Positions 10,384 to 55,681 of a stretch of DNA of 64,000 nt are shown in pieces. The first letter of the stretch is position 1, and each line of letters opens with the position of its first letter. This DNA comes from an uncultured Anaerolineae bacterium (GTDB lineage: Bacteria > Chloroflexota > Anaerolineae > VGOG01), in NCBI GenBank assembly GCA_964390805.1, contig CAYMKL010000010.1:12158-76157 (forward strand), in the 5' to 3' direction. The position numbers were made by a program, and so were the translations under genes. The notes beneath the pieces were generated by a model. It was not told where the DNA came from and searched no databases. It was given only the letters and a program-made list of their open reading frames with translations.

Positions 10384-10390
10384 GTTACGT

Positions 10391-24113: not shown

Positions 24114-24180
24114 CGGTCCGCCTCCCTGTCTGCTGCTCATAGTATACCAGAAAACCTGGGAAAAATCAACTCAAACATTC

Positions 24181-24934: not shown

Positions 24935-24937
24935 GGT

Positions 24938-27590: not shown

Positions 27591-28724
27591 ATGAAGAAGC
27601 TTACATTTCTCACCCTAGCCCTGGTCATCGTTCTGACCATGGCCACCAGTGTCTGGGCCGACGATCCCACTGGCGAATTTGCTGTCATCCAGCAGGCTGC
27701 CGACGACTATCTCAGCAGTGGCAAATCGCCGGTCATCAAAGCCGACGCCCTGTTCGAGAATCTGAACGACGGCGACGCCTCCAATGATCCCTTCATTCTC
27801 AGTGTGCGCAGCCCGGATCACTATGCCATCGGCCACATTGCGGGGGCCATCAACATCCCCTGGCGAGAGGTCGCCAAGCCGGAGAACCTGGCCAAGCTCC
27901 CTACAGACAGACAGATCGTGGATTACTGCTACACCGGTCACACTGGTCAGGTGGCAGCGACCATTTTCAACTTGCTGGGTTACGACGCCCTCAACCTCAA
28001 GTTCGGGATCATGGGATGGACCAAGGACGACACCGTTTTCGGTCACACTGATCGCTTCTACCCGGAGACCCAACCGGACTACAGAGTGGAGACCGACCCC
28101 CATGAGGCCACGACCACTTATCCTTATCCTGTGGTCAGCACCGGCAAGGCCGAAGCTATGGACATCATCGCCACTGCCGCCGACGAGTATCTCAGCAGCG
28201 GCAAACCGCCGGTCATTAAGGCCGATGCCCTGTTCGAGAACCTAAACGACGGTGATGCCTCCAATGATCCCTTCGTCGTCAGTGTTCGCAGCCCGGACCA
28301 CTATGCCATCGGCCACGTTCCAGGGGCCATCAACATCCCCTGGCGGGAGATCGCCAAGCCGGAGAACTTGGCTAAGCTCCCTACTGACAGACAGATCGTG
28401 GTCTATTGCTACACGGGTCACACTGGCCAGGTGGCAGCGACCATTCTCAACTTGTTGGGTTACGATGCCCTCAACCTCAAGTTTGGGATCATGGGATGGA
28501 CCAAGGACGACACCGTTTTCGGTCACACTGATCGCTTCAACCCGGCCACCCAGCCAGACTACAGAGTGGAGACCGCTCCGGTAGCTGTTACTTTGCCCAC
28601 CACCGGTGGAGCCTTGCCTGCCGAAGCTGCGTCCCTGGGCCTGGTGGTCTTTGGTGCCGTCTCTCTAACCGCCGGCGTGGCCAGCTATGCCTGGCGCCGC
28701 CGCAACCTGCGCAAGGCTGCCTGA
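27591..28724 (+). CDS. secreted tandem-rhodanese (sulfurtransferase) protein with a C-terminal LPXTG sortase sorting signal
   Basis: Signal peptide. Two repeated rhodanese modules, each with 'YCYTGHTGQVAATI' containing the active-site Cys. C-terminal 'LPTTGG' + hydrophobic 'LGLVVFGAVSLTAGVASYA' + 'WRRRNLRKAA'. Confidence 0.85.
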   Translation: MKKLTFLTLALVIVLTMATSVWADDPTGEFAVIQQAADDYLSSGKSPVIKADALFENLNDGDASNDPFILSVRSPDHYAIGHIAGAINIPWREVAKPENLAKLPTDRQIVDYCYTGHTGQVAATIFNLLGYDALNLKFGIMGWTKDDTVFGHTDRFYPETQPDYRVETDPHEATTTYPYPVVSTGKAEAMDIIATAADEYLSSGKPPVIKADALFENLNDGDASNDPFVVSVRSPDHYAIGHVPGAINIPWREIAKPENLAKLPTDRQIVVYCYTGHTGQVAATILNLLGYDALNLKFGIMGWTKDDTVFGHTDRFNPATQPDYRVETAPVAVTLPTTGGALPAEAASLGLVVFGAVSLTAGVASYAWRRRNLRKAA

Positions 28725-28969: not shown

Positions 28970-29515
28970 ATGAACAATTCTACACTGCGCGGATTGGTAA
29001 CCCTGACCGCGTTGCTGCTGGTCGTCTTATTGGCGGCTTGCGGGCCTCAGCCGACGCCGGTCACACCGGTGCCGCCGACGACCGTAGTGGCTGCACAGCC
29101 CACTGATACCCCGGTGCCGCCTACGGACACGCCGGTGCCGCCGACTGACACTCCTGTCCCGCCAACCGCTACGCCGATACCCCCAACCGATACTCCTATC
29201 CCACCCACTGCCACGCCGGTACCTCCGACCGATACCCCGGTGCCGCCCACCGCTACGCCAGTACCCCCAACCGATACTCCCATCCCACCCACCGCTACGC
29301 CAGTGTCCCCAACCGATACTCCTATCCCACCCACCGCCACGCCGATGCCCCCAACCGACACGCCGGCACTGCCTACCGATACCCCGGAGCCTCCAACAGC
29401 CACACCGGTGCGCAGCGCGGACAATTGCGTCGCCTGCCACACCGATGAGGCGACGCTGCAGGCCCTGGCTGTGGAGAAGGAGGTCAAGTCGGCCGAGACG
29501 TCGGGTGAGGGCTGA
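28970..29515 (+). CDS. lipoprotein with a Pro/Thr-rich repeat linker and one CXXCH; probably the N-terminal part of the downstream decaheme cytochrome (separated by an in-frame TGA)
   Basis: Lipobox 'LLAACG'. ([12 protein letters not shown])n repeats. 'CVACHT' near the end. Same reading frame as the 29534 ORF; stop TGA at 29513-29515. Confidence 0.7.
29090..29400 (+). repeat. in-frame tandem repeats encoding the PT(D/A)TP(V/I)PP linker
   Basis: Reiterated 'cccaccgatactcctatcccacccaccgctacgccagtaccc'-type units. Confidence 0.8.
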
Positions 29516-30648: not shown

Positions 30649-30683
30649 GAGCCATCCTTGTGAAACAGGATGGCTCTTTTGTT
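30649..30683 (+). terminator. rho-independent terminator
   Basis: gagccatcc / ggatggctc 9-bp stem with loop ttgtgaaacag, followed by TTTTGTT. Confidence 0.7.
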
Positions 30684-30765: not shown

Positions 30766-30794
30766 TTGACAAAATGCCAAAAAGGTGATATAAT
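30766..30794 (+). promoter_or_regulatory. consensus sigma70 promoter (TTGACA - 17 nt - TGaTATAAT), near-identical to the promoter at 24181
   Basis: cTTGACAAAAtGCcAAAAAgGTGaTATAATc vs cTTGACAAAAgGCgAAAAAcGTGtTATAATc. Confidence 0.7.
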
Positions 30795-30848
30795 CTATAT
30801 GTGTAAATTGTCACTATAGGCAGATTGACGTTATTGTTGGGAGGTGAA

Positions 30849-31258
30849 TTATGCCACGCGGTCGTCGTCGGAGGGGAAGGGGGGGCAGAGGTGGTGGCCC
30901 CTGCCCCACGCGAATATATCGTTTCGTGGAACCGTGTCTGCTCCTGCTGCTTCATCGCGGTGCATCCCACGGCTATAGCCTGGTGGAGGAGTTGAAGGAG
31001 TTCGGGTTTGCGGAGACTCCCATTGATCCCAGCATGGTCTATCGCGCCTTGAGGGAGATGGAGGCCCTGGGTCTCGTGACCTCAGCCTGGGATACCGAGG
31101 GCTCAGGGCCGCCACGGCGGGTCTATCAAATAACCGCCGAGGGCGACCAACACCTGGCCCTATGCGTGGCCGACCTGCGGGAAATGGACCGGGTGCTGCA
31201 CAGCTTCTTTGTCGCTTATGATAGCCACATGGAGGAGGGCGAGGGTGAGCATCATTGA
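30849..31258 (+). CDS. PadR-family transcriptional regulator
   Basis: 'HGYSLVEELKEFGF...SMVYRALREMEALGLVTSAWDTEG...RRVYQITAEGDQHL'. Arg/Gly-rich N-terminus. Confidence 0.85.
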
Positions 31259-32003
31259 TGATCTGATCGCCTCTCTGAGAGGCGATGCTCCCGTGCGCGA
31301 AGTACGGGTCTGCGCCTTCTGGACGGCAGTGGTGCTTGATGACGGACGCTGCGGACTGGCTTCCACTCTGCGTCCCGATGAGCCTCAGTGTGCTGGCCCC
31401 GCTCCCCTGGTGCCGCGGGCAGGCCACCTGTTGGATTGCAGCGCGATGGAGCTATCTCAATACGCCAGATCCGAGAGCCTCCTGGAGGCCTCCATCGGGA
31501 TGGCGGCTGTGAACTCCCTGATGGAGATTGACGAGAGCCGGTATGTGGAGCTAAACGCGGGGGATGTCATCCTGAAGGAGGGAACGGGCAGGAAAGTGGC
31601 CATCGTGGGGCACTTTCCCTTCACCCCCAGGGTGAGGGAGGCGGCCGAGAAGCTGTGGGTGCTGGAAAAGAGGCCATTGGAGGGAGACCTGCCTGCGGAG
31701 ATGGCGGCCGAGGTGCTCCCCCAGGCAGACGTGGCGGCCATCACCGGCACCTCGCTCATCAACCACACCTTTGAGGGATTGATGAAGCTGTGCCGCCCCG
31801 ACACTCTGGTCATCGTCCTGGGCCCCACGGCGCCCCTCTCGCCCCTGCTCTTCGACTACGGCGTGGACATCATCTGCGGAACCCTGGTCGCCGACGCGGA
31901 AAACGTGCTGCGACTCATCGGCCAGGGAGCCAACTTCGGGCAGGTGAAGCGCGGCAGGGGCGTGCGCTTGCTGACCATGGCCCAGACGCGAGATTCTAGT
32001 TAA
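31245..32003 (+). CDS. DUF364-like (Rossmann-like domain; putative metal or cofactor-binding) protein
   Basis: 'GKVAIVGHFPFTP...ADVAAITGTSLINHTFEGLMKLC...LVIVLGPTAP...GVDIICGTLV'. GTG start at 31245 chosen so as not to overlap the PadR gene. Confidence 0.55.
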   Translation: MSIIDDLIASLRGDAPVREVRVCAFWTAVVLDDGRCGLASTLRPDEPQCAGPAPLVPRAGHLLDCSAMELSQYARSESLLEASIGMAAVNSLMEIDESRYVELNAGDVILKEGTGRKVAIVGHFPFTPRVREAAEKLWVLEKRPLEGDLPAEMAAEVLPQADVAAITGTSLINHTFEGLMKLCRPDTLVIVLGPTAPLSPLLFDYGVDIICGTLVADAENVLRLIGQGANFGQVKRGRGVRLLTMAQTRDSS

Positions 32004-32093
32004 AGAACATATCCTACCAGGACGCAGATGAACGCAGACAAACGCTGATTTTTTGATCTCATCTACGTGTAAGCAAAGCGGCATCTGCGTTCG

Positions 32094-33185
32094 ATGAAGA
32101 ACGATTTCATGAGAAAGGAGCAAGAGTTGGTTGACGAACAGCAGGTACATCAAGCGTTACGAGAGGTAAAACATCCAGAGTCAGGCGGTAGTTTGATGGA
32201 ACTGGGCATGATCAGGGACATAAGGGTGGACGACAGGCAGGTGAGATTCACCGTCGTCCTGCCCTTCATGGACGTGCCCATCAAGGATCAGGTCGTGAGC
32301 GAAGCGCGGGCGGCGGTGGAGAAGCTGCCAGAGGTCAAGAGGGTAGCCATCGAGCTGGCCGAGATGACTCAGAAGGAGAGAGCCCACTTCATGTCGTTCG
32401 GCAGAGAGACCGGTTCGGCTGAGGGAGTGAACCGTGTCAAGCACGTCATCGCTGTGTTGAGCGGCAAGGGTGGAGTAGGCAAATCTACAGTGGCAGCACT
32501 TCTGACTGTTGCTTTGAGGAGGGAAGGCCATAGAGTGGGCCTGCTCGACGCCGACATCACCGGCCCCAGCATCCCCAAGATGTTCTTCCCCACGCAGAGG
32601 CATCCAGATAACAGCCCCCTGGGCATCCTGCCGGTGGAAAGCGAAACAGGCATTGAGGTCATGTCCATCAATCTGCTTCTCCCCAGCGAGGACCAGGCGG
32701 TCATCTGGCGGGGGCCGCTCATTGGCAAGGCCATTCAGCAGTTTTGGGGTGACGTATACTGGGGCGATCTGGATTACCTGGTCGTGGACCTTCCCCCCGG
32801 TACGGCCGATGCCGCGCTGACCGTCATGCAATCTATTCCTCTGGATGGTGTAGTTCTGGTCACCTCGCCCCAGGGGCTGGCGGGAATGGTAGTGCGTAAG
32901 GCGGCGCAGATGACTCAACACATGGGTACGCCCATCTTAGGGTTGGTGGAAAACATGAGCTACACCATTTGCCCCAAATGCGGGGAGCGCATCGAGATCT
33001 TCGGTCCCAGCAAGGCGGCAACTACAGCAGAGAAGTTCAACATGCCGTTTTTGGGCCGGCTGCCCCTCGATCCCGAGATCTCTAAACTCTGTGATGCCGG
33101 GATGGTTGAGAAATACCCAGCCGATACTTTCGCCCCCATTGCTCAAAAGGTAGTGGCTAACAGGGAAGCGAGAGCCGATAGATGA
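32094..33185 (+). CDS. apbC: Mrp/NBP35/ApbC-family Fe-S cluster carrier ATPase with N-terminal DUF59 domain
   Basis: N-terminal DUF59 'HPESGGSLMELGMIRDIRVD'. Deviant Walker A 'IAVLSGKGGVGKSTVAALL'. C-terminal 'CPKCGERIE'. Confidence 0.9.
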   Translation: MKNDFMRKEQELVDEQQVHQALREVKHPESGGSLMELGMIRDIRVDDRQVRFTVVLPFMDVPIKDQVVSEARAAVEKLPEVKRVAIELAEMTQKERAHFMSFGRETGSAEGVNRVKHVIAVLSGKGGVGKSTVAALLTVALRREGHRVGLLDADITGPSIPKMFFPTQRHPDNSPLGILPVESETGIEVMSINLLLPSEDQAVIWRGPLIGKAIQQFWGDVYWGDLDYLVVDLPPGTADAALTVMQSIPLDGVVLVTSPQGLAGMVVRKAAQMTQHMGTPILGLVENMSYTICPKCGERIEIFGPSKAATTAEKFNMPFLGRLPLDPEISKLCDAGMVEKYPADTFAPIAQKVVANREARADR

Positions 33186-33223
33186 AGATCTGCTGAAGGT
33201 AAAAAGCAAAGAAAACAGAGGAG

Positions 33224-33451
33224 ATGAAAGCGATGTTTCAACGATTATTCGGTCGTGGAGGCGGTCGTGGTGGAGGCCGCGGCCTGGGACACGGCGGAGG
33301 GCGGGGCCGCATGGGCGGCACCAAGGCTGGTGCGGGGCCCGACGGCTACTGCATCTGCCCCAACTGCGGACATAAGGCGCCACATCAGGTGGGTGTGCCC
33401 TGCTACCAAATGGACTGCCCCAAGTGTGGCACCAAGATGGTGAGGGGGTAA
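33224..33451 (+). CDS. small Gly/Arg-rich zinc-ribbon protein (paralog at 49206..49442)
   Basis: 'FGRGGGRGGGRGLGHGGGRGRMGG' followed by 'CICPNCGHKAPHQ...CPKCGTKM' (two CxxC). Confidence 0.6.
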   Translation: MKAMFQRLFGRGGGRGGGRGLGHGGGRGRMGGTKAGAGPDGYCICPNCGHKAPHQVGVPCYQMDCPKCGTKMVRG

Positions 33452-33454
33452 GCC

Positions 33455-34357
33455 ATGATCATCACTGTGGCTAGCGGTAAGGGAGGTACAGGAAAGACCA
33501 TGGTTGCGGTCAATCTGGCATTGGCTGTAGCATCTGGCCAGACAGCAAGCGAGATTGCTGAGAAGCCAGGCCGCTATGATGCCAGGATACTGTTACTGGA
33601 CTGCGACGTGGAGGCCCCCAATGATCATCTGTTCCTGAAACCGACATTCAAAGGGCAGGAGGAGGTGACGCTCCTGGCACCTGAGATCGTCTTGGACAAG
33701 TGCACTTACTGCGGGCGCTGTGCCGAGGCCTGCAACTATAACGCCCTCGCCGTGGTGAGAGGCCAGGTGCTCTTTTTCTCCGAGCTGTGTCACGGCTGTG
33801 GGGCCTGCGCGTTGGTGTGCCCTGAGGGGGCCATCCACGAGGTGCCGGAGGTGATTGGCCTCATCGAAGAGGGTGTAGTGTCCACCCCGCTGGCTGACCT
33901 CGACTTCGCCCATGGTATGCTGGAGATAGGTCGAGCTATCGCCCCGCCAGTTATCCGGCAGTTGAAGCGGCGCATCAACTCCGACCGGCTGGTGATCCTT
34001 GACGCCTCACCTGGCACCTCCTGCCCGGTGGTGGAGGCCATGAAGGGGGCCGACTTCGTGCTGCTGGTCACCGAGCCCACCCCCTTCGGCCTGCACGACC
34101 TGCGGCTGACGGTGGAGGTGGCCCGCGATGAGCTGGGCCTACCGGTGGGCGTGGTGATTAACCGCGACGGCATAGGCGATGAGAAGGTGGAGGAGTACTG
34201 CCAGTCGGAGGGGATCCCTATCCTGATGCGAATTCCCTTCGACCGTCGCATCGCCGAGGTCTACTCCGAGGGAGGGCTGGTCATCGAGGCCCTGCCTGAA
34301 TACAGGGAACGGTTCCGGGAACTCTATCGAAGGATTCGAGAAGAGGTGGACAAGTGA
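33455..34357 (+). CDS. MinD/ParA-superfamily P-loop ATPase with an inserted 2x[4Fe-4S] ferredoxin domain (COG1149-type)
   Basis: 'IITVASGKGGTGKTMVAVNLA'. Inserted 'CTYCGRCAEACNYNAL...CHGCGACALVCPEGAI'. Confidence 0.85.
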   Translation: MIITVASGKGGTGKTMVAVNLALAVASGQTASEIAEKPGRYDARILLLDCDVEAPNDHLFLKPTFKGQEEVTLLAPEIVLDKCTYCGRCAEACNYNALAVVRGQVLFFSELCHGCGACALVCPEGAIHEVPEVIGLIEEGVVSTPLADLDFAHGMLEIGRAIAPPVIRQLKRRINSDRLVILDASPGTSCPVVEAMKGADFVLLVTEPTPFGLHDLRLTVEVARDELGLPVGVVINRDGIGDEKVEEYCQSEGIPILMRIPFDRRIAEVYSEGGLVIEALPEYRERFRELYRRIREEVDK

Positions 34358-35232
34358 GACAAATCGTGATCCTGAGTGGTAAAGGAGGCACAGGCAAAAC
34401 GACAGTGACTGCGGCGCTGGCCCATCTGGCCTCGCAGGAAGCCTCCATCGTGCTGGCCGACGCCGACGTGGATGCGGCCAACCTGGAACTGGTGCTCTCG
34501 CCCCAGGTCCAGGAGGAGGGTGAGTTCATCGGTGGTGGGGTGGCGGTGATTGATGTGGAGCTGTGCACTGCCTGCGGGATCTGCCATGATGTCTGCCGCT
34601 TCGAGGCCATCGTCCCCGGCGACGAGGTGTACGCTGTGGATGACCTCGGCTGTGAGGGTTGCGGCGCTTGCGTATACGCCTGCCCGGTGGAGGCGATTGA
34701 GATGCAGGAGCAGTTGGACGGGAAGTGGTTCCGCTCCCAGGCCCGCTACGGTCCGTTGTTCCACGCCCATCTCTTCGCCGCGCGGGAGAACTCGGGCAAG
34801 CTGGTGACGCTGATCAAAAACGAGGCCCGTGATCTGGCCCCGGAACGGGGGGCTGACTACCTGCTGGTGGATGGCCCGCCGGGCATCGGCTGCCCGGTCA
34901 TCGCCGCCATCTCCGGCACGGACCTGACCCTCCTGGTCACCGAACCTACAGTGTCCGGGGCGCACGACCTGGAACGTATCGTAGGCGTGGCCCAGCACTT
35001 CGGAGTTCCAGCCGCGGTCTGCATCAACAAGTATGACCTGAACCTCGCCAAAACCGAGGAGATCGCCGCCTGGTGTGCTGCACAAGGGGTGCCGATCGTG
35101 GGAAGGATCCCTTTTGACCACGAGGTTACGCGGGCCATGGTGCAGGGAAAACCCATCACCGAACACGCCGATGGAGCGGTAGCTGAGGAGCTTCGACGGG
35201 TTTGGGCTTGGCTCAAGGCGAGGTTTGACTAA
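34354..35232 (+). CDS. second MinD-ferredoxin ATPase (COG1149-type), translationally coupled
   Basis: 'IVILSGKGGTGKTTVTAALA'. 'CTACGICHDVCRFEAI...CEGCGACVYACPVEAI'. Start overlaps the previous stop. Confidence 0.85.
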   Translation: MRQIVILSGKGGTGKTTVTAALAHLASQEASIVLADADVDAANLELVLSPQVQEEGEFIGGGVAVIDVELCTACGICHDVCRFEAIVPGDEVYAVDDLGCEGCGACVYACPVEAIEMQEQLDGKWFRSQARYGPLFHAHLFAARENSGKLVTLIKNEARDLAPERGADYLLVDGPPGIGCPVIAAISGTDLTLLVTEPTVSGAHDLERIVGVAQHFGVPAAVCINKYDLNLAKTEEIAAWCAAQGVPIVGRIPFDHEVTRAMVQGKPITEHADGAVAEELRRVWAWLKARFD

Positions 35233-35241
35233 GGGGAGCAA

Positions 35242-35898
35242 ATGGCGATCAAAGAGAAGGTGAACACGCTTCTTGAGGAGTTGCCCGATGGAGTAGAGTT
35301 AGTTGGCGCTGCTAAGGGCCGAACTGCCCGCGAGATCGAGGAGGCGATAGATGCCGGCTTGGAGATCGTTGGGGAGAACTATATCCAGGAGACCCTGCCA
35401 GTTCAAAACCGTGTGAGCAGAGATGTGGAATGGCATTTCATCGGGCATCTGCAGAGGAACAAGGTGAAGCAGGCGGTGGGGATATTCGATATGATAGAGA
35501 GCCTGGACTCCCTCCGGCTGGCGGAGGAGATAGACAGGAGATGCGAGAGGATCGACAAGGTGATGCCCGTGCTAGTAGAGGTAAACAGTGGCAGAGAGGA
35601 GCAGAAATTCGGGGTGTTGCCGGAAGATGTCGAAGAGCTTGTCAGGAAAGCCTCGACTCTTCCAAACATCAAGATAATGGGGCTGATGACCATGGGCCCT
35701 CGCTTCGGCAACCCTGAGGACTCGCGTCCCTATTTTATCAAGACAAGAGAGATTTTCGAAAAGATTAAGCGACTTAACTTGCCAAACGTTGAAATGAGGT
35801 ATCTTTCTATGGGTATGACAAATTCCTACCGCGTTGCCCTGGAGGAAGGGGCTAACATGTTACGGATAGGAACCAAGGTATTCGGAGAGAGGAGGTGA
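35242..35898 (+). CDS. yggS: YggS/PLPHP-family pyridoxal-phosphate-binding protein
   Basis: 'LVGAAKGRTAREIEEAIDAGLEIVGENYIQE...WHFIGHLQRNKVKQAV...MGLMTMGP'. Confidence 0.85.
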   Translation: MAIKEKVNTLLEELPDGVELVGAAKGRTAREIEEAIDAGLEIVGENYIQETLPVQNRVSRDVEWHFIGHLQRNKVKQAVGIFDMIESLDSLRLAEEIDRRCERIDKVMPVLVEVNSGREEQKFGVLPEDVEELVRKASTLPNIKIMGLMTMGPRFGNPEDSRPYFIKTREIFEKIKRLNLPNVEMRYLSMGMTNSYRVALEEGANMLRIGTKVFGERR

Positions 35899-35903
35899 GC
35901 GAT

Positions 35904-36191
35904 ATGCCAGCTTTTGATGGAACCGGGCCTCGGGGCCTCGGCCCCATGACCGGCCACGGGGAGGGGTACTGCGCCATCGCGTTCCCCCCGCCCGGAACGG
36001 GGAAGGCGCCCTACGGATACGCGGGACTGGCGGGCACGCCGGTGCAGCCTGCCCTGGCGGGCAGTCCAGAGACGGGGGTTCCCTACGCTACGCCACCCGT
36101 TACCGCAACACCCTTTGTGCCTTTGTCTGCCCCACGGTTTGGCCGGGGATTGGGACGGCGCCGGGGTAGAGGTAGAGGAAGATGGCGATAG
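35904..36191 (+). CDS. DUF5320-like Gly/Pro-rich small protein (N-terminal MPxFDGTGP motif)
   Basis: 'MPAFDGTGPRGLGPMTGHGEGYCAIAF...RFGRGLGRRRGRGRGRWR'. RBS GAGGAGG upstream. Confidence 0.6.
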   Translation: MPAFDGTGPRGLGPMTGHGEGYCAIAFPPPGTGKAPYGYAGLAGTPVQPALAGSPETGVPYATPPVTATPFVPLSAPRFGRGLGRRRGRGRGRWR

Positions 36192-36244
36192 TGTGAAGTC
36201 GCCCACAATTATCTAAACTGATGTATTGGAAGGAGGTGAACAAG

Positions 36245-36566
36245 ATGCCAGGCTTTGATGGAACAGGACCGGGTGGTATGGGCCCCATGACTGGTGGCGG
36301 ACGGGGAAGGTGCAATCCGTACAGCCCCTTCTATCTATGCCGGATATGGCCCTTACCCCGCTTCCTATCCCTATCAGCCCTACACTCCGACGGGTACAGG
36401 CTACGCTCCTGTGGCTGGATGGCCAACTGGGGGCTATGGCTTCCAACCCTACGGAGGCTATCCCGGGCCTTACGGCTTTGGGCGTCCCCGATGGGGCATG
36501 CGAGGCTTCGGGGGCCGGGGCATGGGCTGGGGAGAGCGAGGTCGCGGCCGGGGACGTTGGTGGTAG
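36245..36566 (+). pseudogene. second DUF5320-like gene, apparently frameshifted near 36300-36310
   Basis: Frame 2 gives 'MPGFDGTGPGGMGPMTGGGRG' then nonsense. Frame 0 (GTG at 36294) gives the homologous remainder 'GEGAIRTAPSIYAGYGPYP...GFGGRGMGWGERGRGRGRWW'. The shift lies in the G-rich run 'ggcggacggggaagg'. Confidence 0.5.
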
Positions 36567-36628
36567 CAACTATTGACCACCTGACCAAGGACCAACTGAC
36601 TAACTGACCAAGAAGGAGGTGAATTTTA

Positions 36629-36991
36629 ATGGGAGGACACGGGCATCGCTGGATGTACTATGCCACCGGGCTTCCGGGCTGGATGCGCTTTGGCTATAGC
36701 CCAGGCTGGGTGGGCCGCAGTCCTACGGGGCTAGGCCCCTGCGCCGAGTACCTCACGACGGGACAGTGGCCCACGCCACAGATGGCCGCCGCCTGGGGGG
36801 GCGAACCATGGGCTTACGGCGCGCCGGCGCCCGGCGCCTGGCAGGCCGGACCCTGGGCTTATGGCGCTCCAGCGCCCGGCGCGATGCCGCGCGAGCAGGA
36901 GCTGCAGATGCTGAGGGATAACGCCGAAGCACTGAAGGCTCAGCTCGATCAGATCAGCGCGCGCATCGAGGAACTGGAAAAGGAGACATAG
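36629..36991 (+). CDS. Gly/Pro/Trp-rich protein with a C-terminal coiled-coil motif shared with the NifX-like proteins downstream (DUF5320 C-terminal-like)
   Basis: '...PREQELQMLRDNAEALKAQLDQISARIEELEKET'. Compare the tails of the 37138 and 37782 genes. Confidence 0.5.
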   Translation: MGGHGHRWMYYATGLPGWMRFGYSPGWVGRSPTGLGPCAEYLTTGQWPTPQMAAAWGGEPWAYGAPAPGAWQAGPWAYGAPAPGAMPREQELQMLRDNAEALKAQLDQISARIEELEKET

Positions 36992-37137
36992 CGATGGATA
37001 GCAGGGGGATAAAATTCGGGGCGGGTGAACAGAATCGGAAGACTCGCCACCCGCCCCGAGCCCCCAACCTGCACGGTGGTCTGACAACCGGCAGGAGAGG
37101 TACACCTAATCATACCGTCAATAAGGAGGAATTGCAA

Positions 37138-37779
37138 ATGAAGATCGTCGTCACATCCGATGGCGCGGACCTGGACGCGCCGGCCAGCCCAATCTTTGGG
37201 CGGTGCTCCACCTACATCTTCGTTAATACGGAGACCATGGAATTTGAGGTCGTTTCCAACCCGGCCATGTCCGCTCCTGGTGGGGCGGGAATCCAGGCGG
37301 CCCAATTTGTCATCGAGCAAGGCGCACAGGCAGTACTGACCGGCAACATGGGCCCCAATGCCTACAACGTTTTCCAGGCTGCCGGCGTACCCATCTACCT
37401 GCTCACGGGCGGGACAGTGAGAGAGGCAGTGGAGGCGTACAAGGCGGGAAGGCTGCAATCCGCCGCTGACGCCAGCGTCCAGGCGCACGCCGGGATGGGT
37501 ATGGGTCTTGGCATGGGCCGAGGGATGGGCATGGGCCGTGGCATGGGCCGGGGTATGGGCCGTGGCATGGGCATGGGCCAAGGCGCTTACGGAACAACGC
37601 CTCCGCCGCAGCCCGCGCCACCCGCTTCCCGCCCTTCGACAAGCCCTTCGTCAGGCTCAGGACCCAGCTCAGGACAGCGCGAGGAGGAGGTCATGGCCTT
37701 GAAGCAAACGGCCAGTGACTTGCGTCAGCAGTTGGCTCAGATCATGGAACGGCTCGATAAGCTGGAAAAGGAGAGCTAA
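37138..37779 (+). CDS. NifX/NafY/NifB-C-terminal-like (dinitrogenase FeMo-cofactor-binding fold, PF02579-like) protein with Gly/Met-rich repeat and coiled-coil tail
   Basis: 'MKIVVTSDGADLDAPASPIFGRCSTYIFVNTE...GAGIQAAQFVIEQGAQAVLTGNMGPNAYNVFQAAGVPIY'. Then '(GMGxGR)n' and '...LRQQLAQIMERLDKLEKES'. Confidence 0.7.
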   Translation: MKIVVTSDGADLDAPASPIFGRCSTYIFVNTETMEFEVVSNPAMSAPGGAGIQAAQFVIEQGAQAVLTGNMGPNAYNVFQAAGVPIYLLTGGTVREAVEAYKAGRLQSAADASVQAHAGMGMGLGMGRGMGMGRGMGRGMGRGMGMGQGAYGTTPPPQPAPPASRPSTSPSSGSGPSSGQREEEVMALKQTASDLRQQLAQIMERLDKLEKES

Positions 37780-37781
37780 TA

Positions 37782-38288
37782 ATGCGCATTGCGATATCAG
37801 CCGATGACAACAATGGCCTCGATAGCGTGGTTAGCCCTCACTTCGGTCGCTGCCCGCACTACATCCTGGCGGACCTGGACGGTCAGGAGATCCAGGCCGT
37901 CCAGGCTGTGGATAATCCCTACCACGGCCGGCACGCGCCGGGGCAGGTGCCGGGCTTCATCCACAGCCAGGGAGTGCACGTGATGCTCACTGGCGGGATG
38001 GGAGGGCGAGCCATCGGCTTCTTTGAGCAGTATGGCATCGAGGCCGTGACCGGCGCGTCGGGCACGGTGCGCTATGCCCTGGAACGCTACCTGGGCGGCC
38101 AACTGAAGGGTGTCGAACCCTGTCACGAGAGCATTGAGCACGGCCACGGAGAGCTTGACCTGAGCGCCGCTTCGCTTGCGGTCGAAGGGTACGAGCAGGA
38201 CGAAGTAGGCCGCCTGCGCGAGGAAGCCGAGATGCTGCGTCGCCAACTGGGCGAGGTGACGGCTCGGCTGGATAAGCTAGGGAAATAG
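37782..38288 (+). CDS. second NifX/NafY-like (PF02579-like) protein with coiled-coil tail
   Basis: 'MRIAISADDNNGLDSVVSPHFGRCPHYILADLDG...HVMLTGGMGGRAIGFFEQYGIEAV'. C-terminal 'LREEAEMLRRQLGEVTARLDKLGK'. Confidence 0.7.
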   Translation: MRIAISADDNNGLDSVVSPHFGRCPHYILADLDGQEIQAVQAVDNPYHGRHAPGQVPGFIHSQGVHVMLTGGMGGRAIGFFEQYGIEAVTGASGTVRYALERYLGGQLKGVEPCHESIEHGHGELDLSAASLAVEGYEQDEVGRLREEAEMLRRQLGEVTARLDKLGK

Positions 38289-38412
38289 CGCAAGGCAGGA
38301 TGTACCGCATCGCCGATCTGAAAATTACTCACCTGCTCCCGCTAGACCCTAGTCCAGCGGCCTCCTGTTGCCCGAGGAATATCGAAGGGTCTATAGCCAG
38401 AAGGAAATTGAT

Positions 38413-38985
38413 ATGTCTGGAAAAGGAATTGATGTCAGGACGATAGCCATCACCGGCATCATGATCGCAGTGGTGGCTGTATTCACCCGATCTATCATAG
38501 TCCCCATCGGCACCGGGTTTTTCAACTTCTCCGATGTGGCTATCTACTTCGCCGCCTTCGCCTTCGGGCCCTGGATCGGGTTTGTAGCGGGAGGGGTAGG
38601 GGCTGCTCTGGCGGACATCAGCCTGGGTTACAGCCAGTTCGCTCTCCTGACCTTCTTCGCTCATGGCCTGGAGGGCTTGGTAGCCGGTTACCTGGGCTGG
38701 GAGGGGAGCCGGATCGCCCGCTTCGTGGGCAAGGGAGATGTCCGTTTGCGGATGTTTCTGGGCTGGCTGGCGGGAACGGTGGTGATGGTGGGACTCTATT
38801 TCGTGGGGGAGGCTGCCGTGCCGGCCATGTGGGGAGGTCTGCCCCAGGCTCTCACCGAGTGGCCTTTCAACTTGCTGCAGAACGTGGCTGGCGGCATCGT
38901 TGGGATTCCTCTGGTGCTGGCTGTGCGCAGGGCCTATCCCCCCATCACTCGGATGGGCTTGGGGGCAACCTGGAAGGAGCGCTAG
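38413..38985 (+). CDS. ECF-transporter S-component-like polytopic membrane protein
   Basis: About 190 aa with 5-6 TM helices. 'FNFSDVAIYFAAFAFGPWIGFVAGGVGAALADI'. Confidence 0.5.
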   Translation: MSGKGIDVRTIAITGIMIAVVAVFTRSIIVPIGTGFFNFSDVAIYFAAFAFGPWIGFVAGGVGAALADISLGYSQFALLTFFAHGLEGLVAGYLGWEGSRIARFVGKGDVRLRMFLGWLAGTVVMVGLYFVGEAAVPAMWGGLPQALTEWPFNLLQNVAGGIVGIPLVLAVRRAYPPITRMGLGATWKER

Positions 38986-38998
38986 AGGTGATAAACCA

Positions 38999-39418
38999 AT
39001 GCTGACCATCGAGTTGAACCGCTGCGACGGCTGCAGCGCCTGCGTGGAGGTCTGTCCTGAAGGAGCCATCTCTTTGGTCAATGGAGTGGCGAGGATAGAT
39101 TCAGGCTCCTGCACCGAGTGTGAGGCCTGCGTCCAGGCTTGCCCCACCGGGGCGATCCGGGTGGCTAGGCCGATCGCCGTCAGGGAGGAGGCGACGACTG
39201 CTGTGGCAGAGAGGCTCCGGCCCAGCACACTGGCAACGCTGGCCGGCGCGGCCCTCAGCTTCATAGGAAGCCAGCTCTTGCCCCGCGCAGCCGATGCCAT
39301 CGTCAACGCCCTGGACAAGCGACTCAGCGAAGAGCCTGCAGCCGAATCCCGCGAAGCAGTGCCGAGCACAGGGAAGCAGGGTAGTCGTCGCCACCGAAGA
39401 CGTGGAGGGCGAGGATGA
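38999..39418 (+). CDS. 2x[4Fe-4S] ferredoxin-domain protein with a disordered Arg-rich C-terminal tail (paralog at 45176..45727)
   Basis: 'CDGCSACVEVCPEGAI...CTECEACVQACPTGAI'. '...AADAIVNALDKRL...RRHRRRGGRG'. Confidence 0.75.
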   Translation: MLTIELNRCDGCSACVEVCPEGAISLVNGVARIDSGSCTECEACVQACPTGAIRVARPIAVREEATTAVAERLRPSTLATLAGAALSFIGSQLLPRAADAIVNALDKRLSEEPAAESREAVPSTGKQGSRRHRRRGGRG

Positions 39419-40164
39419 TCGTTCTCAAATCCTCCCGCGAGTTGGCGCTCATGCGCCAGGCGGGCCGCATCGTGGCCCAGGTCCACGAGCGCTTCCGGGA
39501 GGTGGTGCGCCCAGGGATCACCACCGCAGATCTGGAGAAAGTCGCCTCCCGTATCATCGAGCAAGAGGGGGCGATTCCCTCTTTCAAGGGATACCGAGGC
39601 TTTCCAGCCGCCATCTGCGCCTCGATCAACGAGGAGATAGTGCACGGCATCCCCAGCCCCGAGCGGGTGCTGAAGGAAGGCGACATCATCAGCCTCGATG
39701 TGGGCACTATCTACAAAGGTTATCAGGGGGACGCGGCTATCACCCTGCCGGTGGGCGAGGTGGATGAGGAGGTTCGACGCCTTTTGCAGGTGACCCAAGG
39801 CGCGCTGAAGGTGGGCATCGCCCAATCCCGCGCCGGCAAGCGGCTGGGCGATATCTCCGCAGCTATCCAGCGCTATGCAGAGGTCAATGGCTTCAACGTG
39901 GTGCGGGAGTACACGGGCCACGGCATCGGTCAGGAGATGCACGAGGATCCGCAGATTCCCAACTTCGGGCGACCCAATCGGGGGCCGCGCTTGCGGCCGG
40001 GCATGACCTTCGCCCTGGAGCCGATGGTCATGACAGGGGACTGGCGGACGAGGACGCTGTCCAATAACTGGACGGTGGTCACCGCCGACGGCTCGCTTTC
40101 CGCTCACTTCGAACACACCATAGCCGTTACCAACGGCGAGCCGGAGATCCTCACGCAATTGTAA
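39415..40164 (+). CDS. map: type I methionine aminopeptidase
   Basis: 'IVLKSSRELALMRQAGRIVAQVH...ICASINEEIVHGIP...ISLDVGTIYKGYQGD...EYTGHGIGQEMHEDPQIPN'. Confidence 0.95.
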   Translation: MIVLKSSRELALMRQAGRIVAQVHERFREVVRPGITTADLEKVASRIIEQEGAIPSFKGYRGFPAAICASINEEIVHGIPSPERVLKEGDIISLDVGTIYKGYQGDAAITLPVGEVDEEVRRLLQVTQGALKVGIAQSRAGKRLGDISAAIQRYAEVNGFNVVREYTGHGIGQEMHEDPQIPNFGRPNRGPRLRPGMTFALEPMVMTGDWRTRTLSNNWTVVTADGSLSAHFEHTIAVTNGEPEILTQL

Positions 40165-40176
40165 GGAGGAAAGGAT

Positions 40177-40887
40177 TTGAGAACGGTTGGCATCGTAGGA
40201 TACAAGGACAGCGGCAAGACCACGTTGACCCACGCCCTGGTCCGCGAGTTGACCCGGCGGGGCCACGAGGTGGCCGTGATCAAGCACACGTCCCACCGCC
40301 TGGACCTCCCAGGGAAGGACACCGCTACGCTGGGAGAAGCCGTCAGCCGGGTGGGGTTCATCTCGCCTCAGGAGTCGGGGGTCTTCTGGAAGAAGCCGCT
40401 GAGCCTGGAGAACATCATCCCCTATCTGGAGGCGGACATCCTCCTCATTGAGGGCTTCAAGGCGGAGAAGACCTTCCCCAAAATCATCTGCCTACGGGGA
40501 GAGCTGGATGATCAGGATCTCTTCGACGGCCTGGCCATCTGCGCCGTGGGCCCCGCTTCTGAGGCGTGCGAACTCGACGTCCCCCACTTGAGCCTGGACG
40601 AGATAGGCAAAATCGCCGACCTGGTAGAGGAGAAAGCGTTCAAGCTGCCCAATCTCGACTGTGGAAGCTGCGGGTTCGAGACTTGTTACGAGTTAGCTCG
40701 CGAGATTGTCAAGGGTAACAGGGATGTGGAGGACTGCGTCTCCCTGCAGCCGATGACGGAGGTGAGAATAGATGGGGAGCTGATGCCCATGAATCCCTTT
40801 ATCTCCGACATTGTGAGAGGCACTATCCTGGGGATGCTGTCACCGCTCAAAGGATTTAAGAAGGGAAAGATCGAGATCAGGATCTGA
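40177..40887 (+). CDS. mobB: molybdopterin-guanine dinucleotide biosynthesis protein MobB with a C-terminal Cys-containing extension
   Basis: P-loop 'VGIVGYKDSGKTTL', '...VAVIKHTSH'. C-terminal 'LDCGSCGFETCYELA'. Confidence 0.8.
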   Translation: MRTVGIVGYKDSGKTTLTHALVRELTRRGHEVAVIKHTSHRLDLPGKDTATLGEAVSRVGFISPQESGVFWKKPLSLENIIPYLEADILLIEGFKAEKTFPKIICLRGELDDQDLFDGLAICAVGPASEACELDVPHLSLDEIGKIADLVEEKAFKLPNLDCGSCGFETCYELAREIVKGNRDVEDCVSLQPMTEVRIDGELMPMNPFISDIVRGTILGMLSPLKGFKKGKIEIRI

Positions 40888-41336
40888 TGGAGCACCAGGA
40901 AGAGACAACTGACTTCGACCGCATGGTGGCGGAGCTGCAGAGAGAGATCATCGAACAGGCGCGGGCGATTTATTCGGCCAAGGTCATTGAGGAGTTCTAC
41001 AATCCCAAGAACCTGGGCCGTATGTCTGTGCCTGATGCTTGTGGAATCGTACATGGCTGGTGCGGCGACACGATGGAGATCTACCTGCAGTTGAACGGGG
41101 ATAGGATCAGAGAGGCCACTTTCATGACCGATGGCTGCGGACCGTCGGTGGCTTGTGGAAGTATGCTCACCACGATGGCACGGGGGATGTCGCTGGAGGA
41201 AGCGAGCGAGATCACGCCGCAAGACCTGCTCGCTGCCTTGGGTGGCCTGCCTGAGGAAAGCGTCCACTGCGCCGAACTGGCGGTGAGCACGCTGCGAGAG
41301 GCCATCGCCAATTGGCATGTAGAAGACAGGGCGTGA
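40887..41336 (+). CDS. NifU/IscU N-terminal-domain-like Fe-S cluster scaffold protein
   Basis: 'YNPKNLGRMSVPDACGIVHGWCGDTMEIYLQ...ATFMTDGCGPSVACGS...VHCAELAVSTLREAI'. Confidence 0.8.
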   Translation: MEHQEETTDFDRMVAELQREIIEQARAIYSAKVIEEFYNPKNLGRMSVPDACGIVHGWCGDTMEIYLQLNGDRIREATFMTDGCGPSVACGSMLTTMARGMSLEEASEITPQDLLAALGGLPEESVHCAELAVSTLREAIANWHVEDRA

Positions 41337-41351
41337 AACAAGGAGGTTAGC

Positions 41352-41840
41352 TTGGCCGTGAGTGGAATGTCGGACTACTTCGTTCGCCTGCGGAACTGCA
41401 TAGGGCACGATCCACTGTTGCATCCCGCTGCTGCTGCCTGTATCCGCGACGAGCAGGGTCGTATCCTGCTCCTGCGGCGCAGCGACGGCATCAATCTGTG
41501 GAGCTTTCCCGGCGGAGCGATGGAGCTGGGCGAGCGTGCCGGCGAGGCGGTGATACGCGAAGTGCACGAGGAGACAGGGTTGGAAGTGGAGCCGGTGGCG
41601 CTCATCGGCGTCTACTCCAACCCCGATTATGCCATCACGTATCCCAACGGCGACCAGGTCCAGCCGGTGATACTCTTCTTCGAGTGTCGGGTGGTGGGCG
41701 GCACGCTCCAGCCGGACATGGAGGAGATCGTGGGGGCGCGTTACTTTGGCCCGCACGATGAGCTGCCGCCGATGTTCCCCTGCTGCGTCGCCAAGGCCCG
41801 CGATGCGTTCATTTTCAACGGGCGGGCTTTCTTCCGCTAA
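41352..41840 (+). CDS. NUDIX hydrolase
   Basis: Nudix box 'GGAMELGERAGEAVIREVHEETGLEV'. Confidence 0.85.
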   Translation: MAVSGMSDYFVRLRNCIGHDPLLHPAAAACIRDEQGRILLLRRSDGINLWSFPGGAMELGERAGEAVIREVHEETGLEVEPVALIGVYSNPDYAITYPNGDQVQPVILFFECRVVGGTLQPDMEEIVGARYFGPHDELPPMFPCCVAKARDAFIFNGRAFFR

Positions 41841-41916
41841 CATCACACTTTTTGCCAATATGCACACTTTGCCCATAATACACTAACTCAAGATTAAGGA
41901 AAGGACTACAAACAAA

Positions 41917-43266: not shown

Positions 43267-43268
43267 TT

Positions 43269-55465: not shown

Positions 55466-55681
55466 ATGGCGGACATGACCGATCTACAAAAACTGCGGAT
55501 ACTATTGCCACACTGGATAGAGCACAACGCCGAGCACGCAGCCGAGTTCCGGGAGTGGGCAGAGCGAGCCCGCGCTGCGGGACGGGAAGGCGTGGCTTCG
55601 GACATCGGCCTGGCCGCTGAAGAGATGGAATGGGTCAACGGGGAACTGGCGGCGGCTCTAGAGAAGCTGGGCCAGGAATGA
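55466..55681 (+). CDS. hypothetical small protein
   Basis: 'LPHWIEHNAEHAAEFREWAERA'. No family recognised. Confidence 0.3.
   Translation: MADMTDLQKLRILLPHWIEHNAEHAAEFREWAERARAAGREGVASDIGLAAEEMEWVNGELAAALEKLGQE

Follow-up and report, generated by a model that had tools for sequence, protein, structure and literature searches.

An Anaerolineae copy of the ORP gene cluster with a probable role in iron-sulfur storage, buffering or delivery

A stretch of 64,000 nucleotides from an uncultured Anaerolineae bacterium of the Chloroflexota (GenBank assembly GCA_964390805.1, contig CAYMKL010000010.1, positions 12,158 to 76,157; hereafter the window) carries, at 30851-38288 on the plus strand, a gene cluster in which P-loop ATPases, iron-sulfur (Fe-S) proteins, NifX-like proteins and small Gly/Arg-rich proteins are found together, raising the question of what such a combination is for. 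A preliminary description of this region listed PadR, DUF364, Mrp/NBP35, two MinD-ferredoxin ATPases, a Gly/Arg zinc ribbon, YggS, three DUF5320 and two NifX-like genes as an uncharacterised metallocofactor-assembly cluster. The listed genes are all present on this strand and are confirmed by Pfam or NCBIfam hidden Markov models (HMMs), with the Gly/Arg ribbon protein having no Pfam family. These assignments also support the statement that the domain types handle metalloclusters without being nitrogenase components, as nif genes are absent from the scanned open reading frames (ORFs). The word uncharacterised, however, is an overstatement, since the same core forms the orp cluster of Desulfovibrio vulgaris (PMC6345978, PMC8359166, PMC3897727), NCBIfam holds a MrpORP model and the related protein IssA has been characterised (PMC5524996). 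What this region holds is the Anaerolineae version of the ORP (orange protein complex) gene cluster, a type specific to anaerobes. Its membership rests on the orange protein structure 2wfb, the NCBIfam MrpORP model and published descriptions. Because its core matches the orp cluster of D. vulgaris, it is not an unknown kind of system but a further member, in Chloroflexota, of a cluster type already described. It departs from the Desulfovibrio type in having another regulator, MrpORP in two parts and additional modules of the DUF5320 family. The ORP complex was reportedly first described in 2011 and is said to have lacked an agreed function since. According to its authors, the physiological role of the cluster type is "still unclear" (PMC8359166). 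We consider it probable that ORP-type clusters serve the ATP- and redox-dependent storage, buffering or delivery of Fe-S (metal-sulfide) species under anoxic, sulfidic conditions.

Two paralogous ATPases belong to the core of the cluster. ATPa (33455-34357, +) is a CbiA/MinD-type P-loop ATPase of the MinD/Mrp/NifH class with an inserted ferredoxin domain containing two CxxCxxCxxxC motifs, as in the Orp3/Orp4 type, and ATPb (34354-35232, +) is its paralogue with the same 2x[4Fe-4S] insert (Pfam CbiA/ParA and two Fer4 domains). The two proteins are 33% identical and their genes overlap by 4 nt. They were followed across 80 loci, one genome per GTDB species, which were seeded only on the ATPa/ATPb alignment; the genes are next to each other in 70 of these, with a median gap of -4 nt. 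The ATPase family counts 734 representatives (50% identity) at E <= 1e-30, and 33 of the best 150 of these are long proteins of at least 560 aa, taken as natural ATPa-ATPb fusions. Twelve long proteins that were examined combine an ATPa-like N-terminal half (44-51% identity) with an ATPb-like C-terminal half (44-54%); in the examples P0361-P0387 (P0361 having 622 aa) each half has its own Walker A and two CxxCxxCxxxC motifs. Because of the translational coupling and these natural (Rosetta-stone) fusions, ATPa and ATPb are predicted to form a heterodimer. In the relative L004, a radical SAM/SPASM gene (radical S-adenosylmethionine, SAM) and a 90-aa ORF lie between ATPa and ATPb (L004:10899-12205); none is found there in the window, which instead has YggS behind ATPb.

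The eight ferredoxin cysteines are 100% conserved among 81 ATPa and 73 ATPb orthologues, and the deviant Walker A motif SGKGGTGKT with its signature lysine is invariant. Another cysteine, in the switch-II motif D-x2-PG-x2-C-PV, 7 residues past the Walker-B aspartate, is 99-100% conserved in both paralogues (ATPa Cys190, 99%), and an extra cysteine of ATPa in LDCDVE is 96% conserved. NifH has the pair Asp125/Cys132, of which Cys132 ligates the subunit-bridging cluster. The switch-II cysteine of the ATPases presumably has this same spacing, and by analogy with NifH there may be nucleotide-coupled cluster chemistry at the ATPase dimer interface. The ferredoxin insertion of ATPa covers ~80 residues (about 64-143) and is absent from every solved structure matched to this protein. 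For the AlphaFold2 (AF2) model of ATPa, which has a predicted local distance difference test score (pLDDT) of 89.3, Foldseek gives archaeal MinD (top matches 1hyq and 1g3q), ApbC, FlhG/FleN (4rz2), ATPase-type HypB (5auq), NifH and BchL as the nearest solved folds, with a query-normalised TM-score of only ~0.5. ATPa thus has the fold of MinD, FlhG and HypB, and differs from them in its ferredoxin insert, its invariant switch-II cysteine and its obligate pairing or fusion with a paralogue. The NCBIfam MinD models score far under their cutoffs.

Next to the ATPases, the NifX-like proteins complete the core. NifX1 (37138-37779, +; Nitro_FeMo-Co PF02579, 79.3 bits) is of the ORP/MTH1175 type and, judged by its best solved relative, may belong to the IssA clade. 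It matches the Desulfovibrio gigas orange protein 2wfb from end to end (residues 2-110, E=1.7e-18, ~40% identity), and its best solved relative is MTH1175 (PDB 1eo1, 7e-20). The PF02579 domain is followed by a (GMGR)n cationic linker GMGRGMGMGRGMGRGMGRGMG, a Pro/Ser linker and a DUF5320-type C-terminal helix, this tail scoring 26.8 bits, just below the Pfam cutoff of 27 bits; the PF02579+PF17253 architecture recurs in nearly all of the best 120 NifX1 homologues. Residues 111-160 have an isoelectric point (pI) of 11.5 and 34% Gly, and the whole protein has a pI of 5.47, a single Cys and 5% Gly in its last 40 residues. NifX2 (37782-38288, +; PF02579, 74.4 bits) is of the PH0822/TM1816/MrpORP Di-Nase type, also with a C-terminal helix, and matches PDB 2yx6 at 1e-25. 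Its pI is 5.27, with 10% Gly in the last 40 residues, and its DUF5320 match is merely suggestive (19.0 bits, E=0.0033). The NifX-like assignment, for which an HMM search had been named as the check, stands with a PF02579 match at E ~1e-21.

The Mrp/NBP35-type Fe-S cluster carrier (32094-33185, +) has an N-terminal DUF59/FeS_assembly_P domain before its ParA-NUBPL domain (317 bits), with the motifs GKGGVGKS and CPKC. PDB matches are 2ph1 and 3kb1 (~1e-72), 8zkc (ApbC) and 6g2g (Cfd1), ranging from 1e-72 to 1e-56. Its best NCBIfam match is NF041136 MrpORP with 328.6 bits over model positions 2-239, compared with 248.5 for ApbC. This remains below the 450-bit MrpORP equivalog cutoff because the fused C-terminal Di-Nase half is absent. 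NifX2 matches the following part of the model, positions 265-364 (64.6 bits, E=1e-17), and its motifs HFGRC, HAPGQVP and PCHE resemble CxHFGHCE, PHxPGxxP and CDH of the MrpORP Di-Nase domain (PMC6345978). Since NifX2 matches the Di-Nase half that Mrp is missing, the two proteins together amount to a split MrpORP. In other loci, too, NifX2 and Mrp genes are often neighbours. In D. vulgaris, MrpORP holds a bridging [4Fe-4S] cluster via CxxC and passes clusters to Orp3/Orp4, and a 3Fe-4S cluster is bound by its Di-Nase domain (PMC6345978). In the orange protein, the ligand is [S2MoS2CuS2MoS2]3-, held without covalent bonds (cited in PMC6345978). Outside nitrogenase, a role of PF02579 is known from two isolated cases, this Mo-Cu orange protein and IssA. 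The family is among those that best discriminate anaerobes from aerobes, occurring in ~65% of anaerobe and ~8% of aerobe genomes (PMC13386939).

The arrangement is kept far outside this genome. The preliminary description had proposed synteny as a check, and the cluster is indeed kept in 80 species of ~15 phyla and both prokaryotic domains. The bacterial loci belong to Chloroflexota, Desulfobacterota, Planctomycetota, Omnitrophota, Armatimonadota, Bacillota, Acidobacteriota, Aminicenantes, Zixibacteria, WOR-3, Ignavibacteria and Verrucomicrobiota, and the archaeal ones to Methanosarcina, Methanocellaceae, Methanophagales, Bathyarchaeia, Thorarchaeota, Altiarchaeota and Thermoplasmatota. Neighbours within 5 kb of ATPa were called by phmmer with the window proteins against six-frame ORFs; for the subset of 34 loci with enough flank a second count is given in brackets. 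ATPb is found in 72/80 loci (34/34) and NifX-like proteins, with a modal copy number of two, in 74/80 (33/34). Mrp follows with 33/80 (18/34), then DUF5320 and ZnR (the Gly/Arg zinc ribbon protein) with 29/80 each (14/34 and 11/34), NifU-like with 25/80 (13/34) and DUF364 with 10/80 (9/34). The ferredoxin gene occurs in 8 of the 80 (3/34), PadR in 5 (not counted in the subset), YggS in 3 (2/34), MobB in 2 (2/34) and the methionine aminopeptidase (MetAP) in 1 (1/34), and no homologue of NUDIX or of the ECF-S gene (energy-coupling factor transporter S-component) was found near ATPa in any of the 80. As NifX-like proteins accompany ATPa in 74 loci, against one for MetAP and none for NUDIX or ECF-S, the arrangement goes far beyond chance and a chance juxtaposition was rejected. 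The core therefore is ATPa, ATPb and NifX-like, with Mrp, DUF5320, ZnR, NifU and DUF364 as frequent accessories, and it is conserved from bacteria to archaea. Of the downstream partners proposed at first, the NifU-like protein recurs, whereas MobB and the ferredoxin do not.

Other recurrent neighbours are sigma-54 enhancer-binding proteins in 10 loci (mostly Desulfobacterota), DUF134 in 15, Fur in 8 and DUF59 in 4. Zn_ribbon_8 (18 loci), DUF89/ARMT1 (13), CGGC (5) and DUF169 also recur near the ATPase pair. Set against MobB in 2/80 and Mo enzymes in 0/80, the neighbours NifU (25/80), Mrp (33/80), Fur (8), DUF59 (4) and CGGC (5) point to an Fe-S rather than a Mo/W ligand. The closest named homologues come from Anaerolineae/Chloroflexota metagenome-assembled genomes. 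In L004-L006 (67% identity) the gene order is PadR, DUF364, Mrp, ZnR, ATPa, the radical SAM/SPASM gene and 90-aa ORF, ATPb, two DUF5320 genes, NifX1, NifX2, ferredoxin, MetAP, MobB-FeS, NUDIX and an oxidoreductase; YggS, ECF-S and NifU are absent from this operon.

The orp cluster of D. vulgaris Hildenborough, orp3-orp4-orp5 / orpR / orp7-orp8-orp9 (DVU2103-DVU2109), is the closest described counterpart. There, Orp3 and Orp4 are MinD-like ATPases with two [4Fe-4S] motifs each, Orp5 and Orp8 are single-domain Di-Nase (PF02579) proteins and Orp9 (MrpORP) joins an Mrp/NBP35 P-loop domain to a Di-Nase domain (PMC6345978, PMC8359166). The window has the same kinds of genes: a paralogous pair of MinD-like ATPases with two [4Fe-4S] motifs each, which matches Orp3/4 by published description; single-domain PF02579 proteins, one of which (NifX1) is of the orange-protein (Orp8/ORP) type; and an Mrp/NBP35 of the MrpORP type with deviant Walker A and CxxC. 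Both clusters are confined to anaerobes. The order ATPa-ATPb-NifX is found in many Desulfobacterota loci, as in orp. In contrast to the two divergent orp operons, which depend on sigma-54, OrpR and integration host factor, the window has a single co-directional operon with a sigma-70 promoter and PadR. Its Mrp has an N-terminal DUF59 and no C-terminal Di-Nase domain, the latter being the separate NifX2, and it adds DUF364, YggS, ZnR and three DUF5320 genes, with the NifX proteins fused to DUF5320-type tails.

A second counterpart is IssA of Pyrococcus furiosus (PF2025). Its IPR003731 domain binds thioferrate, and the proposal for its cationic Gly/Arg/aromatic tail is that it wraps around this anionic chain (PMC5524996). 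According to Vaccaro et al., MTH1175 belongs among the IssA-type proteins (PMC5524996), and M. voltae grown on FeS2 contains more of the IssA-clade proteins (PMC9431491). NifX1 likewise has a PF02579/IPR003731 domain, then a cationic Gly-rich low-complexity segment, and few Cys (1). Unlike IssA it is acidic (pI 5.5), its cationic segment is internal and followed by the Pro/Ser linker and an acidic coiled-coil helix, and the aromatics are concentrated in the free-standing DUF5320 proteins instead of its tail. The published limits for IssA are a pI of at least 9, fewer than 5 Cys and at least 20% Gly in the last 40 residues (for IssX, a pI of at least 8 and at least 10% Gly). NifX1 falls short in pI and Gly because its cationic segment is internal with an acidic helix after it, so that it may at most work "like" IssA. 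NifX2 lies outside these limits as well.

With nitrogenase maturation the cluster shares the PF02579 fold of NifX, NafY and the NifB C-terminal domain, which there binds anionic metal-sulfur clusters non-covalently, next to Fe-S ATPases of the SIMIBI class such as NifH. It differs in the 2x[4Fe-4S] insert that NifH lacks, and carriers of the cluster are mostly non-diazotrophs. None of nifH/D/K/E/N/B was found among the ~50 ORFs searched with Pfam, a set that covers the window except for a few ORFs past 50 kb, and a nitrogenase role was rejected on this ground. The window Mrp resembles Mrp/ApbC/Nbp35-Cfd1 in its deviant Walker A, CxxC and DUF59, and is set apart by the candidate clients (ATPa, ATPb) dedicated to it within the cluster and by a MrpORP score above its ApbC score.

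The Gly/Arg-rich proteins form a further layer of the cluster. Six of its proteins have such low-complexity segments, namely PadR at its N-terminus, ZnR, DUF5320 #1 and #2, NifX1 in its linker and, more weakly, DUF5320 #3. ZnR (33224-33451, +) is a 75-aa protein with a Gly/Arg segment GRGGGRGGGRGLGHGGGRGR and a C-terminal CxCPxCG...PC....CPxCG ribbon, without a Pfam family above cutoff; where it occurs in the 80 loci, it is directly 5' of ATPa in 14. Its homologues in most other taxa start with the DUF5320 N-motif MPRGDGTGPxGQGPGTGRG, which the window copy lacks, followed by a Gly/Arg spacer and the ribbon, and because of this start ZnR belongs to the DUF5320 modular family. DUF5320 #1 (35904-36191, +; Pfam PF17253, 36.1 bits in its N-part) has the N-motif MPAFDGTGPRGLGPMTGHGEGYC and a cationic tail GRGLGRRRGRGRGRWR, with a pI of 10.8 and no coiled coil. 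DUF5320 #3 (36629-36991, +; 28.3 bits in its C-part) has a conserved RWMYYATGLPGWMRFGYSPGW...GLGPC segment joined through a Pro/Gly linker to a C-terminal amphipathic helix, and counts 1027 homologue clusters. Both clear the PF17253 gathering threshold of 27 bits. The subfamily of DUF5320 #3 has a near-invariant 55-residue N-segment (36629-36800), RWMYYATGLPGWMRFGYSPGWxGRSPTGLGPCAxYLxTGxWPTPQ, in bacteria and archaea (Methanocellaceae, Methanophagales). When the DUF5320 #3 monomer is modelled by AF2 (overall pLDDT 54.7), only the C-terminal helix 88-119 is confident (71-77).

Of the three DUF5320 genes reported at first, the middle one does not exist as a single ORF. DUF5320 #2 (36245-36566, +) starts with a good ribosome-binding site (RBS) before ATG 36245 and the N-motif MPGFDGTGPGGMGPMTGGGRGRC in this frame, but after CNPYSP its G/Y/P/R tail, ending in GRGRGRWW, continues in the +1 frame (ORF 36294-36566); its cationic segment is GRGMGWGERGRGRGRWW. 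The shift site is AGC-CCC-TTC at ~36324-36332. The disrupted sequence is identical, base for base, in the Logan assemblies L089 (SRR24302423; 2060-2505) and L090 (SRR8146442; 325-775), so that an assembly error was rejected and the disruption is real in the population. An intact 84-aa orthologue exists in the Anaerolineales relative L008 (43.9 bits by phmmer). The hand-reconstructed protein shares the N-motif and has no Pfam match at E <= 0.001. The gene may be either a pseudogene or subject to programmed +1 frameshifting; if tRNA-Pro slipped by +1, moving from CCC to CCU, the exact protein would be regained.

Across loci the same modules are interchanged: the N-motif MPxxDGTGPxGxGPxTGRGxGxC, a Gly/Arg/aromatic spacer, the YYATGLPGWMRFGYSPGW...GLGPC segment, the zinc ribbon, the NifX domain and the C-terminal amphipathic helix. 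Related helices of the last kind close DUF5320 #3 (REQELQMLRDNAEALKAQLDQISARIEELEKET), NifX1 (REEEVMALKQTASDLRQQLAQIMERLDKLEKES) and NifX2 (DEVGRLREEAEMLRRQLGEVTARLDKLGK). A literature search found no paper on DUF5320 function, and the DUF5320/ZnR proteins are a previously undiscussed cationic Gly/Arg modular family. Arg/Gly extensions similar to the tails of DUF5320 and IssA-type proteins also occur on three unrelated families of cluster-linked regulators: PadR (in the window at 30851-30925), DUF134, with C-terminal tails such as GRGRSGRGRRHRGGR, and Fur, with the N-terminal extension PWWHGKFRGCGYR in 5/8 copies. Tailed DUF134 and Fur copies are found in L014, L017, L035-L037, L040, L054, L056, L070, L075, L079 and L086.

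The cluster begins with the PadR-family regulator (30851-31258, +; Pfam PF03551, 61.7 bits), whose cationic Arg/Gly N-extension MPRGRRRRGRGGRGGGPC is also present on cluster-linked PadR copies of seven other loci (L004, L008, L010, L011, L030, L043 and L073). On its 5' side, a terminator-like hairpin with a 10-bp stem and a T run (30649-30676, +) closes the upstream cytochrome gene and marks the boundary of the cluster. A sigma-70 promoter, TTGACA-17-TATAAT with a TG extension and a 12/12 match, lies at 30766-30794 (+), 57 nt 5' of PadR. From the -35 element through 25 nt past the -10 element, this stretch is near-invariant compared with L004, the flanks diverging. Directly 3' of the -10 element, CTATATGTGTAAATTGTCACTATAG (30795-30819, +) with its outer 5-bp inverted repeat CTATA/TATAG is a plausible candidate for the PadR operator, a proposal resting on conservation with L004 only; an inverted-repeat search of the promoter region at seed 6 found no pair beyond this outer repeat. 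The plus-strand array is unbroken and co-directional from 30851 to 43679, with short or overlapping junctions. A terminator-like site at 41784-41807 and a second promoter-like site at 41852-41879 suggest that the operon ends after the NUDIX gene, at ~41.8 kb. The cluster thus forms its own operon from ~30.85 to ~41.8 kb, with a conserved sigma-70 promoter that is probably under PadR control. Rfam and tRNA scans of the whole window gave no matches.

In the mechanism that we propose, a NifU/IscU-like scaffold and Mrp would assemble [4Fe-4S] clusters and hand them over, and the ATPa/ATPb heterodimer would couple ATP binding or hydrolysis to electron or cluster transfer, as each subunit has two ferredoxin-type [4Fe-4S] clusters and the invariant switch-II cysteine. 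NifX1 and NifX2 would hold an anionic inorganic metal-sulfide species non-covalently; the ligands of their homologues are [S2MoS2CuS2MoS2]3-, a 3Fe-4S cluster, thioferrate and NifB-co. The cationic Gly/Arg/aromatic segments of NifX1, DUF5320 and ZnR might bind this same species, neutralising and wrapping it as proposed for the IssA tail, and the C-terminal helix common to DUF5320 #3, NifX1 and NifX2 might bring these carriers into one assembly. Leads for the function of ORP clusters in general are the minimal core of ATPa, ATPb and NifX-like, the Rosetta-stone fusions, the switch-II cysteine and the split MrpORP. To these can be added the Fe-S context (NifU, Fur, DUF59) instead of a Mo context and the cationic DUF5320/ZnR family, which ties ORP clusters to the IssA storage model.

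Several points weigh against a role in Fe-S storage, buffering or delivery. The evidence for this organism comes from sequences and models, and the ligand is a proposed one. Gly/Arg-rich segments bind nucleic acids in other systems, and on DNA-binding regulators such tails may do no more than strengthen the hold on DNA. What suggests a NifH-like role for the switch-II cysteine is its spacing and not a structure; Orp3/4/5/7/8 and P. furiosus IssA were compared by published description, not by sequence; and NifX1, as explained, lies outside the IssA range with its pI of 5.5 and 5% Gly. When isolated, the orange protein of D. gigas contained a Mo-Cu cluster and no Fe-S species. Moreover, lowering orp expression in D. 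vulgaris has a single reported effect, a defect in cell morphology or of a division-like kind (PMC8359166).

A bolder form of the Fe-S storage role, which we offer tentatively and think doubtful as a whole, is that ORP-type clusters build an ATP-driven store of iron-sulfide (thioferrate-like) mineral as an anaerobic counterpart of ferritin. NifX would nucleate the mineral, Gly/Arg proteins would wrap it and the coiled coil would assemble the particles, while the Mrp/NifU-loaded ATPases would deposit or mobilise [4Fe-4S] and PadR, DUF134 and some Fur regulators would sense it via their Arg/Gly tails. If this is true, the Desulfovibrio morphology phenotype would be secondary to Fe-S homeostasis.

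Another possibility, in our view an unlikely one, is the handling of Mo/W sulfide. Here the NifX-like proteins would bind clusters of the thiomolybdate or thiotungstate type and either buffer and deliver Mo/W or detoxify thiomolybdate-Cu for enzymes such as the upstream Psr-like ones. The ~40% identity of NifX1 to the Mo-Cu-binding 2wfb fits this, as do the MobB-FeS fusion within the same operon, the two upstream operons for oxidoreductases with molybdenum bis(pyranopterin guanine dinucleotide) (Mo-bisPGD) and the DUF364 gene. DUF364 is elsewhere tied to molybdate/tungstate transporters, and in M. maripaludis nif and mod genes are among those with which it shows cofitness (PMC2954201; bioRxiv 10.1101/2024.03.05.583561). 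However, MobB and DUF364 occur in only 2 and 10 of the 80 loci and Mo-oxidoreductases within 10 kb in none, and the recurrent partners are Fe-S proteins (NifU, Mrp, and Fur in 8 loci). The terminator and own promoter cut the cluster off from the Mo island, and mod/tup/wtp transporter or molybdenum cofactor (Moco) synthesis genes were not found in the cluster by Pfam.

The ATPases might also act, as first proposed for the Desulfovibrio ORP complex, in a MinD-like positioning or cell-division system, located at the membrane or pole with the other proteins as cargo or adaptors. Their fold and deviant Walker A are those of the MinD/ParA class, archaeal MinD gives the best structural matches, and inactivation of OrpR leads to morphological defects and MrpORP is polar in D. 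vulgaris (PMC6345978, PMC8359166). ATPa and ATPb each end in a strongly amphipathic helix, with hydrophobic moments (muH) of 0.82 and 0.62 in the top 5% within each protein, but the high charge of these helices (mean hydrophobicity -0.77 and -0.24) does not fit a membrane-targeting sequence, and membrane targeting is for this reason not established. Besides, minC, minE, ftsZ and par genes were found neither in the window ORFs searched nor among the recurrent neighbours, the pair is kept with metallocluster proteins in bacteria and archaea of differing division machineries, and the eight invariant ferredoxin cysteines and the switch-II cysteine are absent from canonical MinD. We therefore regard this role as improbable.

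A regulatory or RNA role of DUF5320 and ZnR, apart from any metal-sulfide, as nucleic-acid-binding or condensate-forming (RGG-like) proteins seems very improbable. The Arg/Gly tails on three kinds of cluster-linked DNA-binding regulators (PadR, DUF134, Fur) would suit it, eukaryotic RGG motifs bind RNA, and the AF2 model of DUF5320 #3 has low confidence outside its C-terminal helix. On the other hand, a single analogue has been characterised, the IssA tail, and for this tail thioferrate binding is proposed (PMC5524996). Nearly all of the best 120 NifX1 homologues have the DUF5320 modules joined to a metallocluster-binding NifX domain, and these modules specifically accompany the Fe-S ATPase pair (29/80 loci). 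Lastly, that the cluster is a dedicated maturation pathway for the upstream multihaem cytochrome and molybdoenzyme island, as suggested in the preliminary description, is scarcely credible and was rejected: it has in its favour the proximity in the window and a Fer4_11 and NrfD pair 5' of PadR in L004, but homologues of the Mo-oxidoreductase, multihaem cytochrome or rhodanese occur within 10 kb in 0/80 loci, the cluster is a separate transcription unit with a terminator and its own promoter in between, and haem attachment and Moco insertion rely on known machineries that are unrelated to ORP-type genes.

With Fe-S storage, buffering or delivery remaining the reading that we prefer, the less recurrent genes of the operon can be described. 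The DUF4213+DUF364 protein (31245-32003, +, in an ORF from 31209) has Pfam scores of 74.2 and 135.2 bits and matches PDB 3l5o at E=1e-19. Its probable start is GTG 31245, judged by an RBS and a 14-nt overlap with PadR as in the L004 gene model. Only one DUF364 enzyme has been characterised to date, and its reaction is the cyclisation of a SAM derivative (PMC12930334). The YggS-family pyridoxal phosphate-binding protein (35242-35898, +; TIGR00044, 169.8 bits compared with a cutoff of 106.25) is probably a lineage-specific passenger.

Downstream of NifX2 follow an ECF-transporter S-component-like membrane protein (38368-38985, +; Pfam PF07155, 107.6 bits), found neither in L004 nor in any of the 80 loci, and a 2x[4Fe-4S] ferredoxin with a long C-terminal extension (38999-39418, +; Pfam), which is kept in L004. 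The M24 methionine aminopeptidase (39415-40164, +; Pfam 185.6 bits) is also common to L004. Next comes a fusion of a MobB-like P-loop domain with the PF04060 'putative Fe-S cluster' domain (40177-40887, +; Pfam 81.5 and 46.4 bits), which is kept in the L004 operon and also occurs in L036 and L056. The NifU_N/IscU-type Fe-S scaffold (40887-41336, +; Pfam 105.1 bits) has three Cys, in WCGD, GCGPS and HCAEL, and the NUDIX hydrolase (41352-41840, +; Pfam) is the final gene before the terminator-like site. Beyond it, in the same array, Pfam identifies a pyridine-nucleotide disulfide oxidoreductase. YggS, MetAP, NUDIX, ECF-S and MobB are local or lineage-specific passengers.

On the upstream side, two tandem sets of PsrA-like Mo-bisPGD oxidoreductase, 4Fe-4S and NrfD genes (1014-5340 and 8074-12439) have genes for an SPFH/Band-7 protein and a multihaem cytochrome behind each set, and a Fer4_11, NrfD and cytochrome set and an exported tandem rhodanese protein (24287-25906, 27591-28724) are also present. 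Together, these genes look like a respiratory island of the sulfur/polysulfide type. As the cluster has its own transcription unit and this context is shared by none of the 80 loci, a service role for the island is not supported. Directly 5' of a 362-aa multihaem cytochrome, a gene at 28970-29515 encodes a 181-aa protein with a signal- or lipoprotein-like N-terminus, ~12 near-perfect repeats and a terminal CxxCH haem motif. The sole large minus-strand gene in the first half of the window (22593-24140) encodes a 515-aa protein with an N-terminal PadR domain and DUF4388, so that another member of the PadR family lies near the PadR of the cluster. On the downstream side, a radical SAM gene (55630-56673) and two metallo-beta-lactamase (MBL)-fold genes (43985-44686, 49446-50333) lie 6-17 kb past the cluster and are 46-58% identical to families that adjoin the ATPase pair in 13 and 12 of the 80 loci, respectively, in other phyla. 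Because of this resemblance, the functional neighbourhood may extend beyond the coordinates of the cluster.

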